NCBI GenBank assembly: GCA_000004695.1
Contig: CM000153.2
Span: forward strand, 128,001-192,000
Length of the DNA: 64,000 nucleotides
Source: Dictyostelium discoideum
Lineage: Eukaryota
Direction of reading: 5' to 3'
The translations under genes were made by a program, and so were the position numbers. The notes below the pieces were generated by a model. The model worked only from the letters and a program-made list of their open reading frames with translations, was not told where the DNA came from and searched no databases. How positions within the stretch are numbered: position 1 is the stretch's first letter; each line of letters starts with the position of its first letter. Of this stretch, positions 8,624 to 50,241 are shown piece after piece.

Positions 8624-8751
8624 ATAAAAAAACAAATTGTTTTTTTTTATTTATACTTTATACAGCTAAATATTTAGTCTGTTATCATAATAAAAAAACA
8701 TAAAATTGTTAATGTTGTTTAAAATAAAAAAAAAAAGAAAAAAGTTTAGAG

Positions 8752-9447: not shown

Positions 9448-9981
9448 CTTTCTTTTCTTTTCTTTTCCTTCGTACTTTTTTTTTATTTTTTATTTTTTAT
9501 TTTTTTTATTTTTCTAAATATCAATCAACAAATTTTTTATTTTTATTTTTTTTTAATTATTAACAGAAATAAAAAGTTCAAATCAAAAAAATCAAAAAAA
9601 ACTTTTTTTTTTAAAACAAAGATTTTTATCAAATTTCAAATAAAAATCTTTTTTTATTTTAATTTTATTTTTTTAAAAATTTTTTTTTTATTCCATCATC
9701 ATTTTTTTAAAAAAAAAAAAAAATTTTTGTTAACACAAAAAAAAAAAAAATAAAAATAAAATTTAAAAAACTAAATAATTTTTATAGAAATAGGAGAAAG
9801 AGTGTAAAAGTGAAAAACGAGAGATAAAAATTAAAAAAACAAGATAGGGATAACAATAACTAAAAGAAATATAATTTAAAATTATTAACGAATACTTTAA
9901 CGATAATAATAATAACAACAACCAACAACCAACAACAACCAACAACAACTGTATATTTTAATTAGTAGTGGTAGAAGTATA

Positions 9982-42742: not shown

Positions 42743-43341
42743 TTTTTTACAATTTTATCCGTTATTTGAAATAATTAAAAAAATAAAAAAAAAAATAAAA
42801 AAATGAATTCAAAATTTCAAAAAAAAAAAATAAAAAAAATTAAAAAAAATAAATTTTTTTTTATATTGGCTATGAAGATGAAAAAATTAAAAAAAAAAAA
42901 AAAAAAAGAAAATAAAATTAAAATTAAATGTGTGTTTGTACAAACTCTCAAAGAGTTATATATATATAAAGGAATTCTAAAAATGTTTGAAAAAATAAAA
43001 AATTAAAACTGTAAAAAATTTATGCCTATTTTTATTTTCAAACCCAAAAACACAATTCCCGCTTTTTTTTTTTTTTTTTTTTTTTTCAAAAATAAAAATA
43101 TTATGACAACATTTCTTAAAATGGCAGAATGCAACTTTTCAACCAATTTATGTTATTAGAGTTTTAGACAATTTATCTCCAAAATTGCTTTTTTATTTTT
43201 TATTTTATTTATTTTTTTTTGGGTTAAGTTATTAAATTTTTTTTTTTTTTTGCAGGTTTATGACATATCACCAATAGAGTCAATTTCTTTATTTTGTTTA
43301 TTTTTTATTTTTTATTATATTTAAAACTCTAGATCTTATAG

Positions 43342-43373
<32 letters not shown>

Positions 43374-43884
43374 ATTCTTTTTAAAATTAAATTTCATAAA
43401 TAAACTTTCACAATGTCCAAAATAAAAAATATACATCGGGAATGAATATGGATATTAAAATTATTTTTTATTATTTTGTTTATATTTTTTAATTGTTTTT
43501 TTTCAGTAAGCACATAAATATTATTTAAGTTCAAATGAAATTGATTTTACAAATAATATGGATGGTTTAACATGTTTGGCGAATTCATTTATTAGTGAAA
43601 CATCAGGAGTATTAAATTTTCAATTAGGTTCATCATTATATAATTATGAAGTTAAAATTGAAGAAATTGAATTTTTTATTTCTCCATCACCATCTCCATC
43701 TCCATCCTCAACCCCATCCTCAACCCCTTCATTAACCCCATCGTTACCTCCAACTTTACCTCCAACTTTACCTCCAACATTACCTCCAACACAACCTCCA
43801 TCATTACCTCCATCTTCCTCATCTTCCTCATCACCCTCATCACCCTCATCACCCTCATCATTATCAAAAAGTGATAGAAATAAA

Positions 43885-46319
43885 TCAATCAATCAAAGTT
43901 TCATTTGGAAATAAACTGCATTGTAAATTACATTCAAGAGGTATAATATTATTATTTGAAGATCTTGTTAAACTTGCATTTTTAAAATCTTTTAAACTCA
44001 TTCCACCAATCTTTATTGAAATACCATTGTAAATATTATTTCTAACCATTGGAACAACTGTAATAATTGGTTCTAAATATTTAATAATAAAATTTGATAT
44101 TTTTAAATCTTTACCAATAAATACAGTTACATTGAGTGAACTCTCTTTACTGTTTGCTCTAACTATTAATACCCTTTCTTCTTGTTTGAATATTGTTGTA
44201 TTTTGATTATTTGCAAATACATTAACTTTGAATTCATCAGTCGTATTGAAATTTTTACCTGAAATTGTGATAAGACCTCCACAACTTAATGTTTTACTAT
44301 CTTTATTTATTATACCAAAAATAATAGGTGGTAATATTAAATAAAATGATGATTGCATTTTAAGGGCATTGACAGTAATATCAATTGGACCACTTTCATA
44401 TATATCTGCTCTAACAAGTGTAATTTGGTTATCTGTTAGTGATATAATATTTGATTTGATTTCTTCACCATTTAAATAAACTTTAATTAATGATATTGTA
44501 TTACCAAAATTATTACCATGAATTGTAATTAAATTACTATAACCTACTCTAGAGAATGAACATGATTTTACATTTGGTGGTTCATATGTAAAATATAATT
44601 GATCAAATACTTTAAAATTATATTTAAATGTAAATCTTTTATTCATACCAGTACCAAATGGTGTTGGACATATGGTTCGATAGTATCCTGATGTTGACAA
44701 TTGTAATGATGGTATTGAACATTCTTTAGCTGGTTCCTTACCGACTACCATAGTTGGTTTCATATCTAATGAATGAATTGGACACCTGACGTAATATAAT
44801 TCCATAACTATCGTCCCATTTGATACTGATGATGTTCCATTGATAACTTTAACTGATAATGATGCTGGAATTGAAATTGGATTAATCGAAATATCAGCAC
44901 GAGTGAAAATAATATTAAATGATGCACATTTTAAAAGTGGTATTTTAAATGTTACAGTCTTTTCATCAGGTGTTACATTAAATTGGGTAATATTAATTTT
45001 AGTTCCATCAGCAACATTTAATTGAATAGATGATTCTTTTGAACCAAGATTTGAGCCAGCCAATGTTACAATACCATTTAAATATGACCCACTTGAAATT
45101 TTGGGAATATTGTATGAAAATGTTACAGGACTAGAACTTGTTGAATTACAACCACCAAAATTAATATTAACAGGTAAATTTTTACCACCAGATTCATTGG
45201 AACTTAATTTACATTCTAATTCAGTTGATGTTGTTGATTTAATAAATTCACATTGTTGATCACCTATTGTAATTATTGGGATTAATGAAGTTGAAGATAG
45301 TTTTGAACCTTTAATTGTAACAATACCACCAATTAGATTTGATACTGATGATATTGATGTTATTATTGCTGGGAAACAATGGATAAATTTCTTTTCACTT
45401 GAAATTTCATCTACAGTAATATTTACAGACATTGGACCAACTTCAACTCTATTATAGTCATTTACCTCAATTCGTACATGTCTTTCTGTAATATTAAAAT
45501 TATTTTGTATAACACCATCGAAATAAACTTGAACTAATTTTTAATATAAAAGTTTTTACCATTAATTGTTATTATTTGTTTTGATGGATCTGAAATGATA
45601 CTTGATATTATTGGTGATGCATAAGAAAAAGGAAAATCTGCGGATAATCTGTTAAATCTAAAAGTAAATTTCCCAGAACCTATGTTAGCATAAACTGTAA
45701 TATTGTTACAGTTAGAGGAAGGATTAGACATATCAGTTCTAATATTAAAACCTTTTCCTGCACTTGTAAGAATATATTTATTTTCTTCATTGAAATATAA
45801 TAACTTTCCACTAATAAGAAATTCACCTCCATCTGTTGATGGATGTTTACTATACTTGACGCCAAGTGGTTTTGGAACACCATTTGATAAATGCAAACTA
45901 AAAGTGCAATCTTCTGTTGGATTTGAAACATCTCGTGCACAACCTTTATTACTTAAAGTGCCCCATAATCTTGTTAATGGTTCATCGGAATGGAAAACAC
46001 AATATCGGTATGTATCATCAACTTGGCTACAATTAAAATAATTTGGAGCCATATCAGTTCTTGGAACCATTAAATCATTATACATAATCAAGCTAGTAAA
46101 ATATGATTTATCTTTATTATAAACGTAAGTCAATGTATCATTTGCAAACCTAATGTCTAAAATTAAAAAATTTGAAAATTAATAATATATATTAAAAGTT
46201 AACTTTTTTAAATTATTACGAAACCAATAAATACCCAATACTTCTGGTGGACGCACAGAAAAAGTCTTTCCATAAAATGATATCGAAATGATCAAAAATA
46301 AAATTAATTTACTTTTCAT
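43885..46319 (-). CDS. Secreted IPT/TIG-repeat protein of the Tgr (tiger) type; copy 1 is apparently intact. Exons are join(43885..45485,45560..46156,46220..46319).
   Basis: Exon 1 is a signal peptide, [33 protein letters not shown]. Exon 2 is an approximately 200-aa Cys-containing N-domain, ...[45 protein letters not shown].... Exon 3 has at least 4 IPT/TIG-like repeats with the pattern P.I.SI....GG.VTI.G.NL ([27 protein letters not shown]; [14 protein letters not shown]; [13 protein letters not shown]; ...). Exon 2 and exon 3 are joined by a 74-nt GTAAAA...TTACAG intron at 45486..45559. This intron contains the in-frame stop that ends track ORF 45534..46133. No transmembrane segment was found at the C-terminus. 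Confidence 0.6.
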
Positions 46320-46538
46320 TTGCTAATTAATAACAATCAAAAAATTAAAAAAAAAAAAAAAAAAAAAAAAATAAATAAATAAATAATCAAAAAAAAAAAA
46401 AAATTATAAATAGAATATAAAAATTAATTCTAAAAATAGAAGCCATAATCTGGTTTTTAAATACATTTGACCTGTGTTTGTGATTGTCAAATTTTTTTTT
46501 TGAAAGGGCTTTCTTAAAAACTTACACATTGCAATTTA

Positions 46539-46590
46539 AAAGGAAGTGCTATACATATTTAATCTCGAGATTTTCAATTTAAATATTCTT
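46539..46590 (-). promoter_or_regulatory. Conserved promoter-proximal block shared by Tgr-like paralogues, located about 220-270 bp upstream of the copy-1 ATG. Its counterpart is at 48751..48808 upstream of copy 2.
   Basis: The top-strand text at 46539..46590 is aaaaggaagtgctatacatatttaatctcgagattttcaatttaaatattc. At 48751..48808 it is aaaggaagtgctatacatttttaatctcgagatatccaatttaaatctttt. That is more than 90% identity inside otherwise divergent AT-rich flanks. A second shared block (ctaaaaatagaa.c.ataa.ctg.tt...catttg.cctgtg.ttg) lies 60-130 bp nearer the ATG in all three copies (46428.., 47108.., 48630..). Confidence 0.55.
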
Positions 46591-46704
46591 TCTCTATTAT
46601 TGTTAATTATTCTCTTTTATTTTTTTTTTTTCTAATTAATTTTTTTTTTTTTTTTTTAGTGCAATAGTTATATTTAATTATAATTTTTAAATATCTAAAA
46701 AAAT

Positions 46705-46977
46705 TGTTAACCATAACCTTTAATTGTGGCAATACCACCAATTAGATTTGATATTGATGATATTGATGTTATTATTGTTTGGAAACAATTGACAAAATGC
46801 TTTTTAATTGAAAGTTCATTTACAGTATTATTTACTGACATTGGACAAACCTCAACTCTATTAAATTAAAAAATTAAGAAACCAATAAATACCCAATACT
46901 TCTGGTCTGACCACAGAAAAAGCCCTTCCATAAAATGATACCAAAATGATCAAAAATAAAATTAATTCACTTTTCAT
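46705..46977 (-). pseudogene. Fragment of a Tgr-like gene: a signal-peptide exon (ATG at 46977) fused directly to about 160 nt from the 5' end of the IPT/TIG exon. The N-domain exon is missing.
   Basis: 46885..46985 is about 85% identical to the copy-1 exon 1 region 46217..46319. 46700..46860 matches copy-1 45300..45460. The upstream 47100..47180 shares the promoter-proximal block with the other copies. Confidence 0.5.
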
Positions 46978-46994
46978 TTGTTTATTAATTAAAG

Positions 46995-47040
<46 letters not shown>

Positions 47041-47518
47041 ATAACCCAAAAAAAAATAAAATAAATGGTAAAAAAAAATTATTAATGAATCTAAAAATAA
47101 ATTCTAAAAATAGAACCTATAAATCTGGTTAAAAAACATTTAACCTGTGCTTGATTGTGTCAATTTTTTTTTTTGATAACCATGTATATAGGTTTTAGTT
47201 TTATGTTTTTTTTAAACTGTGTGGTTATAGTTTCGAAATTATTATTTTATATATATATTATTATTTTATTTTATTATATTTTATTTTTAACATATCAGAT
47301 ATTTTAATTAGTTTTTTTTTCAGTAAAATTATTTAAAAAGAGTTTTTGGAGGGTAATTAATTTAAATTAAAGCAAAAAGAAGTAACTAAACCAATTGAAA
47401 TACCCGCAAATATATCACTTAATAATTTACAAGATTTATTTCCACCACATTTTGGTAATGAAGAGGCTGATGAGGATGATGAAGATGGTGATAAATATGG
47501 AGATGATGATGGAGAATT

Positions 47519-48462
47519 TTATGGAGATAATGATGGAGATAATGATGGAGATAATGATGGGGTTAACGATGGGGTTGGCGATGGACCACCTTCAACTCTA
47601 TTATAGTCCTTCACTTCAATTCGTACATGTTTTTGTGTAATATTAATATTATTTTGTTTAACACCATCGAAATAAACTTGAACCAATCAATTTTTAATAT
47701 AAAAGTTATTACCATTAATTGCTATTGTTTGTTTTGATGGATCTGAAATTATACTTGATATTATTGGTGGTGCATAAGAAAAATCAAACCATTGTTGAAA
47801 GTTAAATATAAATCTAAATTTCCCAGAACCTGCTGAAGCAGAAATAGTGAAATTGTTACAGTCAGAGGACGGTAGAGACATCAGTTTTAAATCTAAAATA
47901 ACCTACATTGGTTTGTACTTCTGGGAATCTTTCAGAGAAACATAAAAACTTTCCACCAATAAGAAATTCTCCTCCACTTGTTGGTGGATGTTTACTATAC
48001 TTGACGTCATATGGTATTGGAATAGCCCTTGATTGTGACAAACTATAACTGCAATCTTCTTTTGGCTCGTATTCTTCCCGTGCACAACCTTTACTATTTT
48101 GATATCCCCATAATCTTGTTAATGGTTCATCGTAATGGAAAACACAATATCGGAATTTATCATCAACTTGACTACAGTTAAAATAGTTTGGTGCCATATC
48201 AGTTCTGGGAACCTTATAATCTTTATACATAACCAAGCTAGTAAAATATGGTTTAAATTTATAATAAACGTAGATCAATGTATCATTTGCCAACCTAATA
48301 TCTAAAATTAAAAATTTTGAAAATTAAAAATTAATATATTTATAACTTTTTTAAAATATTAAGAAACCAATAAATACCCAATACTTCAGGCGGGAAAACA
48401 GAATAAGCCGTTCCATAAAACGATACCAAAATGATCAAATATAAATTTAATTTACTTTTCAT
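47519..48462 (-). pseudogene. Degenerate paralogue (copy 2) of the Tgr-like gene. The exon-1 donor is mutated GT->TT. The mini-intron acceptor is mutated CAG->CAC. About 1.5 kb of IPT/TIG coding is deleted and the gene is fused to a Ser/Pro-rich repeat.
   Basis: The signal exon [33 protein letters not shown] is followed by TTAATA instead of GTAATA. The N-domain ORF 47862..48293 is paralogous to 45534..46133 ([34 protein letters not shown]). After the retained 78-nt mini-intron homologue there are only about 40 codons of IPT exon left ([51 protein letters not shown]). Confidence 0.55.
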
Positions 48463-48519
48463 TTATTTATTTATTAATTAAAGATAACAAAAAAAAAAAA
48501 ACAAAAAAAAAAAAACCAA

Positions 48520-48555
<36 letters not shown>

Positions 48556-48990
48556 ACCGAAAAAAAAAAAGAAAATAAAAAATAATCAAAAAAAAAAAAT
48601 AATAATAATTATCGATAGAACCTAAAAATAAATTTTAAAAATAGAAAGCTATAATTCTGATTAAAAACCATTTGTCTGTGCTTGATAATGTTAAATTTTT
48701 TTTTTTTTTTTTTTGAAAGAAGTGTTTTTTAAAAACTTTTACTTTGAATTTTAAAGGAAGTGCTATACATTTTTAATCTCGAGATATCCAATTTAAATCT
48801 TTTTTCTGTGTTTCTATCTTTTTTTATCTTTTTTTTTTTTTTTATTCACAGTGTATTATTATAATTTTAATTCATTAATGAATTAAAGTAAATAAAGAAA
48901 TAAAGAAAAATACAAAAAAACAAGATAAACTTAATTTTGTGCAAAAAAAAAAAAAAGAAAAAGAAAAAAAGTTTTTTTTAAAAATATTAT

Positions 48991-49028
<38 letters not shown>

Positions 49029-49074
49029 AAAAAAAGAAAAAATCTATCAAATTTTTTTTTTTTTTTAAATTAAA

Positions 49075-50059
49075 ATGAAAAGTAACGGAAAACAATTAAC
49101 ATCAACAATATTTCCATACGTTGCACCATATTTAATAAATGAATTGAAGTTTTTAGAAATTTTAGAATTATCATTACTTTCAAAACAAAATTTTAAAATT
49201 ATTAGAAATTTAATAACTTATGAAAGTAAAGAATTAAATATTGTATTAGGAAAATTTGATCAATTAAAATTATATATTCAATTATCATTCATATATAATC
49301 TATCATATTCAAACTATGAATTTAAATTAATTCAATATAAAGATATTGAATATATTAATTTAAAAAGAGGAAATATAAAAATTGAAAATAACAATGATTA
49401 TCTACTTGAAAATAGTAATAATAATTGTAAAGATTATTTACTTTCACATTGTTCCAAATTAAAACATATTCATTGGGTAATGGATATTAATATATTGAAA
49501 TCCACAATTGGGAAATTAATAATTGATTATACTGATAACGGATTCACAAGTTTTGATAGGTTAATTTTAAATATTGATTTTAATAATCTACCATACTCAA
49601 ATACAAATGAAATTGAATCATTACAATTCATAAATACATATACTCTACAAACTGAAAATGTTTTTAATTTTAATTTTATTAATAATTTTAAACCAAGAAA
49701 ATTAATAATCCATGATGAAAATATTGGTTTACTTTATAACAATATTTTTAAAATAAATCATTTAAATTTAAAAGAATTAAAATGTTTTAGAAATATAATT
49801 GGTTCTTCAATTTTAATTAATTCAATTTTTAATTATTTAAATCAACAAACACAACATGTTCAACAAGAACATTACTCATCAATCACAAGTTTAAAATCAA
49901 TTCATATCAATATCAATACCACCTCAATTAATACTACCAACTTTATTGAATTTAAAAATGAAATTCAATTAATTAAGGAATTAATTAAAAATCAATCTCA
50001 TAATAATAATAATAATAATAATAATAAAACTTTAAATTATTTAAAGTTTAAAATTACAT

Positions 50060-50141
<82 letters not shown>

Positions 50142-50241
50142 TAATAATAATCAATACATAAATGAAATTAATTCATTTAAAAATTTTATAGATTTAATAA
50201 ATAATTTTAATTTTAATATTATAATTAAAATTAAAGATTAA
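49075..50241 (+). CDS. Hypothetical protein with an F-box-like N-terminus and leucine-rich / FNIP-like repeats, poly-Asn near the C-terminus.
   Basis: FPYVAPYLINELKFLEILELSLLSKQNFKIIRNL resembles an F-box. The rest is Leu/Ile/Asn-rich repeats common in Dictyostelium FNIP/LRR families. The ORF is uninterrupted. Confidence 0.5.

Follow-up and report, generated by a model that had tools for sequence, protein, structure and literature searches.

A stretch of 64,000 nucleotides from Dictyostelium discoideum (assembly GCA_000004695.1, contig CM000153.2, positions 128,001 to 192,000 of the forward strand; in the following the window, to which all positions refer unless a locus is named) carries three related units in head-to-tail order on the minus strand. 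These very probably form a tandem cluster of TgrC/D/K-type genes of the Tgr ("Tiger") family of cell-surface proteins, all three members of which are pseudogenes in the laboratory strains AX4 and AX2. A preliminary description of the window had proposed one intact copy (copy 1) next to two decayed ones (copies 2 and 3). The decay of the latter two was confirmed, as copy 2 contains frame breaks and stops and copy 3 is fragmentary, but copy 1 was found to be a pseudogene in this strain as well, with a frameshift and stop at 45534-45540 and a 3' end that is inverted and truncated. An uninterrupted frame across the unit is retained in none of the three copies (0/3), and presumably no copy gives rise to a functional membrane protein.

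For comparison, the chromosome CM142510.1 of strain AX2-214 (GCA_054883475.1, locus L001), the syntenic locus of a D. discoideum assembly with the same flanking genes as the window (GCA_054859385.1, L002) and the locus of a third D. discoideum strain (GCA_054859355.1, L003) were used, together with the syntenic loci of D. citrinum (L004) and D. firmibasis (L005) and with two loci carrying tgrC-type paralogs (L006, which is the chromosome-3 tgr locus, and L007). The AX2-214 chromosome is collinear with the window over 22.8 kb and 99.7% identical to it, with four mismatches and 14 short gaps in this range. The locus tags in this assembly belong to a ten-genome study in which AX2-214 is included (PMC12745789). 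Judged by this near-identity and by an old protein model (P0067) that matches copy 1 exactly, the window is of the AX4/AX2 laboratory-strain type.

The tandem array of Tgr units is real because self-comparison, domain search and protein search agree. When positions 43000-49500 were compared with themselves by BLAST, the three minus-strand units were linked to each other with E<=2e-38 throughout. Copy 2 (48569..47582) matched copy 1 (46423..45433) with 82% identity over 1009 nucleotides and E=0, the upstream regions of both (48847..48560 and 46632..46356) matched with 77% and E=2e-38, and copy 3 matched copy 1 in two pieces (47176..46866 with 46503..46208, 82%, E=2e-68; 46863..46715 with 45454..45306, 89%, E=6e-48). 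The start codons lie at 48462 (copy 2), 46977 (copy 3) and 46319 (copy 1), and each begins an exon of 85 nucleotides, which in all three copies encodes a short hydrophobic leader resembling that of TgrC1 and representing a putative signal peptide. A further Tgr fragment beyond these three copies was not found by tblastn in the whole 64-kb window.

As the preliminary description had expected, an IPT/TIG domain was detected. The 515-codon open reading frame (ORF) 43885-45432 matches Pfam TIG (PF01833) in three stretches with E=4.5e-22 and 78.3 bits (cutoff 20.9), and the ORF 45534-46133 matches the Ig_TgrO1 domain (PF24612) with E=1.4e-10 and 41.7 bits (cutoff 27.9). The broken N-terminal domain of copy 2 gave no match to PF24612 but does align with the intact allele. 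The proposed assignment to the Tgr family was likewise supported by protein search, in which the nearest named relatives were alleles of TgrC1/LagC (53-55% identity) and TgrD1 (53%), with 95-98% of the query covered. The intact ortholog of copy 1 at the syntenic locus (L002 B) can be aligned with TgrC1 from end to end, with 51% identity over 820 amino acids.

Copy 1 (B-type) is disabled at two places. In an alignment of eight paralogous or orthologous copies, a loss of four nucleotides was seen in copy 1 alone, together with a TAG stop codon at 45534-45536, whereas the frame is maintained at this site in six further copies and in two tgrC paralogs. Both the deletion and the TAG are identical in the independent AX2-214 assembly. 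The frame thereby changes at residue 236, within the first IPT domain (IPT1).

The second lesion of copy 1 concerns its 3' end. The body can be aligned with L002 B as far as 43892, positions 43525-43886 of the plus strand (362 nucleotides) match the C-terminal stalk at L002 16272-16684, and positions 43528-43419 of the minus strand match the 3' flank at L002 16785-16899. Since body, stalk and 3' flank thus align to L002 in alternating strand orientation, the stalk is inverted. In L002 it reads ..LSTNEIDFTNY..SETSGVLNFQL..EEIEF..S/P repeats..SKSGGNKS, and it lies in sense orientation both there and in the third strain (L003). A segment of 100 nucleotides (L002 16685-16784), which encodes CKLSRGTIAGISIGFVTALFALILY and the stop codon and hence the hydrophobic anchor, is missing from the window, and the C-terminal anchor is accordingly present in the intact ortholog and absent from copy 1. 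At the proximal inversion junction, 15 nucleotides were lost and a short filler of GATT repeats is found; at the distal junction the 100 nucleotides were lost and a TTAA microhomology is shared. The stop codon of the copy 1 body at 43885-43887 is artificial and was made by the inversion junction. The rearranged 3' end is common to two independent assemblies of the laboratory strain. Two apparent coding stretches in this region were considered and rejected, namely a plus-strand ORF at 43558-43914 (118 codons) as a convergent gene, which is the inverted Tgr stalk, and the reading "AHKYY" upstream of the inverted stalk, which comes from the 3' flank read in reverse complement.

The lesions of copy 2 (A-type) were scored against its own ortholog, L002 A, to which it is 93% identical. 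A deletion of two nucleotides at about 47880 causes a frameshift (frame change at residue 171), a change of TCA to TGA creates a nonsense codon at 47687-47689, a further deletion, in frame and about 2.1 kb long, joins the GGTCCA of IPT1 to the serine/proline-rich (S/P) repeats of the stalk with a CCA microhomology, and a TAA stop codon follows within the stalk at 47519-47521. A loss of IPT coding sequence had already been proposed for copy 2; the deletion itself was verified, but its size is about 2.1 kb against the ortholog and not about 1.5 kb. Copy 2 also does not end at 47519 as previously assumed, as the remnant runs on through the stalk and the hydrophobic tail to 47357. The tail (IFAGISIGLVTSFCF) is kept but lies downstream of the premature stops, and the homologous 3' flank extends to about 47253.

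Two further defects had been attributed to copy 2, which concern splicing and which both dissolve on comparison. The donor of exon 1 reads G|GTATTT in all three copies (46234 in copy 1, 48377 in copy 2, 46892 in copy 3), and its use yields the annotated product of 953 amino acids of the intact allele as well as the N-terminus of TgrC1. The donor of copy 2 is therefore kept. The GT that had been taken for the donor (cGTaat) lies 15 nucleotides further downstream and was rejected, since the intact allele has TTTCTTACT at this place and the loss of a GT that is absent from the intact allele is no loss of a donor. The alleged loss of a mini-intron acceptor in copy 2 (AG to AC) rests on a wrong gene model, as no such intron exists.

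Copy 3 had been described as a direct fusion of exon 1 to the start of the IPT exon. The joining of exon 1 to the IPT region was found, and the junction includes a stub of 29 nucleotides of intron 1. The copy covers residues 1-30 and 264-313 only, and downstream of its IPT1 piece the sequence is intergenic and homologous to the far-upstream region of the B copy. Compared with each of the A- and B-type copies, its upstream part is 80-84% identical and its IPT piece 84-90%. Since these distances are about the same whichever copy is taken, copy 3 is old and not a recent derivative, and a recent one-step duplication of A or B as its origin is not supported.

The point at which the deletion in copy 2 sets in (47582) and that at which the IPT piece of copy 3 begins (46863) map to sites of IPT1 (..YNRVEGGP..) no more than 21 nucleotides apart. 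The chance of such a coincidence for two random breakpoints was estimated at roughly 1-2%, and the two breakpoints may mark a fragile site or go back to a single template-switch event. Copy 3 might be either the product of such an event or the rest of a third unit, comparable to copy M of L003.

From these comparisons, a course of events can be proposed. The ancestral unit very probably consisted of the conserved upstream blocks, a putative signal-peptide exon of 85 nucleotides, an intron of about 78 nucleotides and a single long exon. This exon encoded an N-terminal immunoglobulin-like (Ig-like) domain and IPT/TIG repeats, together with a stalk rich in S/P and a hydrophobic anchor at the C-terminus. 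Copy 1 was broken in the AX4 lineage by the 4-nucleotide deletion with its TAG and by the 362-nucleotide stalk inversion with loss of the anchor. Copy 2 decayed by the 2-nucleotide frameshift, the nonsense codon, the deletion of about 2.1 kb at a microhomology and the stalk stop, and copy 3 is an old remnant, made up of the proximal upstream region, exon 1, the intron stub and 149 nucleotides of IPT1. The rearrangements probably arose by microhomology-mediated repair or template switching.

Other strains carry the cluster in different states. At L002, two copies are found, of which A has an 11-nucleotide deletion in exon 1 (10032) and frameshifts, and B is intact, with a single long exon of 917 codons that together with exon 1 gives the annotated 953 residues, and with the stalk in sense. 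L003 has three copies. One of them (A') consists of the upstream region fused to the last 100 nucleotides of the body, followed by the stalk, another (M) is of full length and frameshifted, and the third (B) contains one deletion of a single nucleotide in an A4 run (3799), which may be real or a homopolymer error of long-read sequencing. The AX4 orthologs are about 91-93% identical to those of L002 and L003, similar to the flanking DNA, and A and B paralogs are 81-86% identical. Because the paralogs are less alike than the orthologs, the A/B duplication predates the split of AX4 from the other strains.

The locus had previously been regarded as a young and still-decaying cluster. This view holds for the lesions of copy 1, which among the strains compared are specific to the AX4/AX2 lineage, and is in line with the absence of the cluster in D. 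citrinum, but it does not hold for the A/B duplication, which is older than the strain split. In D. citrinum no Tgr gene was found at the syntenic site (L004 6483-9232), where a papain-like protease and a membrane protein of the multi-pass type are encoded instead. At the corresponding site, D. firmibasis (L005 3017-9405) has Tgr genes of another subfamily with 25% identity. Thus, the same intergenic neighbourhood holds different Tgr types depending on the lineage. A birth-and-death evolution, as suggested at the outset, fits both the sequence results and the literature (PMC12745789; bioRxiv 10.1101/2025.10.22.684067). According to PMC12745789, the tgr complement of AX4 comprises 38 genes and 26 pseudogenes, and the large tgrCDK clade duplicates rapidly and is confined to the discoideum clade.

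Copy 1 is not uniform along its length. Its 5' part is B-like (89-94% identity to B alleles vs 73-85% to A), whereas the last 500 nucleotides of the body (43891-44390) match copies A and M of other strains with 95% identity and B alleles with 90-92%, which suggests gene conversion or recombination between paralogs. It has been proposed that tgr pseudogenes serve as donors (bioRxiv 10.1101/2025.10.22.684067; PMC12745789), and the mosaic of copy 1 would agree with broken copies that persist as a reservoir of diversity, from which sequence passes to other tgr paralogs by gene conversion or non-allelic recombination. Such a role is compatible with a cluster of pseudogenes, but we consider it fairly unlikely here, as the mosaic signal comes from a few windows of 250 nucleotides in a comparison of identities only and a reservoir effect would be a consequence at the population level rather than a selected function demonstrable at the locus.

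Nearly identical blocks had also been noticed upstream of copies 1 and 2. They were located and measure 52 nucleotides each (Table 1). A 15-mer from the core of this distal block occurs twice in the window, with 0.03 occurrences expected by chance. When seven upstream regions from three strains were aligned, 43/52 columns of the block were invariant, as compared with 125/209 in the rest of the upstream sequence; in the N-domain exon, 69% of the columns were invariant and the best window of 52 columns had 46 invariant ones. Within the block, a 10-nucleotide palindrome, ATCTCGAGAT, which the B alleles do not preserve exactly, precedes the nearly invariant AGATTAAAWATGTATAGCACTTCCTTT. Copy 3 has no such block upstream, and neither the 12-mer core of the block nor the palindrome occurs at L006 and L007, the two loci with tgrC paralogs. 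Because of this absence, a general promoter motif of tgrC genes was rejected, BLAST with the upstream sequence being swamped by low-complexity matches, and no Rfam or ARAGORN match in the region spoke for a non-coding RNA or a transfer RNA. Most likely, the distal block is a promoter element. In copy M of L003, a GC-richer insertion of about 56 nucleotides (about 8650-8710), found in no other copy, lies directly downstream of it.

Closer to the start codon, the promoter-proximal blocks TTGACA..CAAGCACAG and TTCTATTTTTAGAATT are common to all copies including copy 3. The proximal blocks (CAATCAAGC..AACCAGA..TCTATTTTTAGA; window 46440-46500) resemble, by eye only, the sequence upstream of two tgrC-type genes at L006 (about 9740-9800 and 1040-1090), where BLAST was again swamped by low-complexity matches.

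Two observations do not sit easily with a cluster composed of pseudogenes alone. The upstream block is unusually conserved for a set of mostly pseudogenes, and the body of copy 1 retains an open frame of 548 codons with a ratio of non-synonymous to synonymous substitution rates (dN/dS) of 0.58 against the intact allele. Inactivation of copy 1 is therefore recent, or some constraint persists. On the side of constraint, the block might be a cis-regulatory element specific for the sub-cluster and still under selection, with the copies either transcribed, as regulatory or decoy RNAs or for short secreted N-domain products, or kept as recombination donors able to resurrect or diversify the intact allele of other strains. 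This we consider quite unlikely. The dN/dS values of copy 1 against L002 B (1.02 in the N-domain, 0.58 in the IPT body) are compatible with a recent inactivation of copy 1 but not decisive.

A narrower proposal would be that copy 1 yields a secreted product of about 227 residues, made up of the putative signal peptide and N-terminal Ig-like domain and ending at the TAG, with a function of its own such as that of a soluble decoy. Exon 1, donor, acceptor and the N-domain frame of copy 1 are indeed intact up to 45537, and the conserved upstream blocks would fit as well. However, the dN/dS of 1.02 in this very domain points to an absence of purifying selection, the product would terminate within IPT1, and according to the legend of Fig. 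S2 in bioRxiv 10.1101/2025.10.22.684067 most tgr genes are expressed in AX4 at low levels or not detectably, so that a functional short product appears very unlikely.

The preliminary description had kept copy 1 intact by assuming a mini-intron of 26 nucleotides at 45534-45559. If it were spliced out, copy 1 would work and give a secreted, anchorless Tgr protein of 776 residues similar to TgrB2. The segment starts with GT and ends with AG, its removal restores the frame, the frame downstream is open for 548 codons, two automated gene models (P0001 and P0067) bridge the same positions, and anchorless Tgr proteins such as TgrB2 do exist (bioRxiv 10.1101/2025.10.22.684067). The spliced product was built and then rejected on the comparison of eight sequences and of TgrC1. 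The segment belongs to the coding sequence, and is in frame, in L002 A, L002 B, L003 M, L003 B, two tgrC paralogs and TgrC1; TgrC1 reads GDNFFTNKNLVRVSFDG across the site and the ORF of L002 B is likewise uninterrupted. Together with the four lost nucleotides, the 26 nucleotides make up ten in-frame codons (GKNFYINNPL), to which GDNFFTNKNL corresponds in TgrC1 and which are conserved in every other copy. As the homologs carry it in frame, the segment is damaged coding sequence and not an intron, and beyond the GT..AG ends nothing about it fits an intron, since it is not absent from the coding alignment of the homologs. Splicing would moreover cost the IPT domain its G-x-N-F strand, the true intron 1 measures 76-78 nucleotides in the cluster genes as opposed to 26, and the stop codon of the body derives from the inversion junction. 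An intron of 26 nucleotides is also far below the usual size in Dictyostelium. A working copy 1 is thus highly improbable.

That the lesions, and the inversion in particular, are assembly artefacts of an AT-rich and repeat-rich region is practically negligible as an explanation, since, although the stalk is built of 12-nucleotide tandem repeats and long homopolymer runs, which are difficult to assemble, flank the region, the independent AX2-214 long-read assembly, collinear over 22.8 kb, has the same 4-nucleotide deletion and the same inverted stalk, and both inversion junctions lie in unique sequence.

With copy 1 as a pseudogene, the existing gene models at the locus can be understood. The AX2-214 model P0001 (729 amino acids, L001 10001-12829) is a chimera in which the IPT fragment of copy 3 is spliced onto exon 2 of copy 1 and which contains the false intron of 26 nucleotides. 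A second AX2-214 model of 118 amino acids on the opposite strand (L001 12928-13284; window 43558-43914, plus strand) corresponds to the inverted Tgr stalk. Both are artefacts, produced when a gene structure was imposed on a sequence with a frameshift and an inversion. The older model P0067 (UPI00004E3722, 755 amino acids) matches copy 1 exactly and bridges the frameshift by forced introns. The 515-codon IPT/TIG frame of the reference laboratory strain, intact as it appears, should therefore not be taken for a gene. No AX4-labelled protein with more than 52% identity to the product of the locus was found by protein search, with the chimera P0001 and the older P0067 as the only models, and the locus is presumably already recorded as pseudogenes in the annotation.

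Among known Tgr proteins, TgrC1 (LagC), the allorecognition ligand paired with TgrB1, aligns collinearly with the cluster genes and shares their architecture, which comprises a putative signal peptide, an N-terminal Ig-like domain (PF24612), IPT/TIG repeats, a stalk and a C-terminal hydrophobic segment. The cluster differs from it in its location among housekeeping neighbours, and an adjacent, divergently transcribed partner gene of the tgrB/E/J type was not found by tblastn within the 64-kb window, where the neighbouring ORFs are unrelated to Tgr. Furthermore, the intact L002 B allele stops directly after the hydrophobic segment and has no cytoplasmic tail, and unlike TgrC1 all copies of the cluster are disabled in the AX4/AX2 strain. 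TgrD1 and the tgrCDK clade are related by 53% identity over 95% of the query, but tgrD1 occurs as one functional gene with tgrE1 as its partner, whereas the cluster consists of tandem copies in the same orientation without a partner. With TgrB2, which is naturally truncated and lacks a transmembrane domain, copy 1 has the loss of the C-terminal anchor in common. However, TgrB2 is described in bioRxiv 10.1101/2025.10.22.684067 as strongly expressed with an open reading frame, whereas copy 1 has an internal frameshift and stop and its truncation stems from an inversion.

A further parallel is provided by the annotated AX4 tgr pseudogenes and weakly expressed relatives (e.g., tgrC_ps1 and the low-expression tgrC2-C5), which are also truncated or frameshifted relatives of tgrC in duplicate clusters. 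According to bioRxiv 10.1101/2025.10.22.684067 and PMC12745789, AX4 tgr pseudogene loci are often open in other strains, and copy 1 and L002 B show exactly this pattern. In the passages of these two reports that were read, there is no mention of a stalk inversion with anchor loss or of the false mini-intron, and no pseudogene names for the three copies were found. The family, its pseudogenes and their turnover have already been described, and the cluster opens no new question. It rather illustrates the ways in which tgr genes are lost, by small indels, by microhomology deletions and by a small inversion that removes the anchor. The finding that the copy 1 gene is intact in a wild strain fits the published differences between strains in their functional tgr repertoire. 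The features of the cluster are collected in Table 1.

Table 1. Features of the Tgr cluster in the window, listed from upstream to downstream for each copy.
Feature	Position	Strand	Remarks
Copy 2, distal upstream block	48747..48798	-	ATTTAAATTGGATATCTCGAGATTAAAAATGTATAGCACTTCCTTTAAAATT; 285-336 nt upstream of ATG
Copy 2, exon 1 (putative signal-peptide exon)	48378..48462	-	MKSKLNLYLIILVSFYGTAYSVFPPEVL; donor GT 48377-48376 intact
Copy 2, exon 2: N-terminal Ig-like domain and start of IPT1	47582..48301	-	
Copy 2, S/P-rich stalk and hydrophobic C-terminal tail	47357..47581	-	terminal stop 47357-47359
Copy 3, proximal upstream region	46978..47176	-	distal block not recognisable
Copy 3, exon 1 (46893-46977) and 29-nt stub of intron 1	46864..46977	-	exon 1: MKSELILFLIILVSFYGRAFSVVRPEVL
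Copy 3, IPT1 fragment	46715..46863	-	149 nt; corresponds to copy 1 45454-45306
Copy 1, distal upstream block	46533..46584	-	214-265 nt upstream of ATG
Copy 1, exon 1 (putative signal-peptide exon)	46235..46319	-	donor GT 46234-46233
Copy 1, intron 1	46157-46234	-	78 nt
Copy 1, exon 2: N-terminal Ig_TgrO1 domain and start of IPT1	45541..46156	-	PF24612, E=1.4e-10
Copy 1, disabling lesion: 4-nt deletion and TAG (45534-45536)	45534..45540	-	from homolog alignment
Copy 1, IPT/TIG body, 548-codon open frame	43887..45533	-	TIG, E=4.5e-22
Copy 1, C-terminal stalk, inverted relative to the body	43525..43886	+	LSSNEIDFTNN..SETSGVLNFQL..EEIEFFISPSPS..S/P repeats..SKSDRNKS
Copy 1, 3' flank in original orientation	43419..43528	-	TTAA microhomology with inverted segment

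The base composition of the window is AT-rich (about 14-29% GC). The neighbours of the cluster have no relation to Tgr and comprise an HP1-like chromo/chromo-shadow protein, a Cu/Zn SOD, a WD40 protein, an uncharacterised protein of 388 amino acids, a sedolisin-like protease and ORC1/Cdc6. The ORF of the 388-amino-acid protein (49075-50241, plus strand) is without a Pfam domain and contains a long poly-asparagine tract. It diverges fast; identity drops from 86% in another D. discoideum strain to 62-63% in D. citrinum and to 52% in D. firmibasis.

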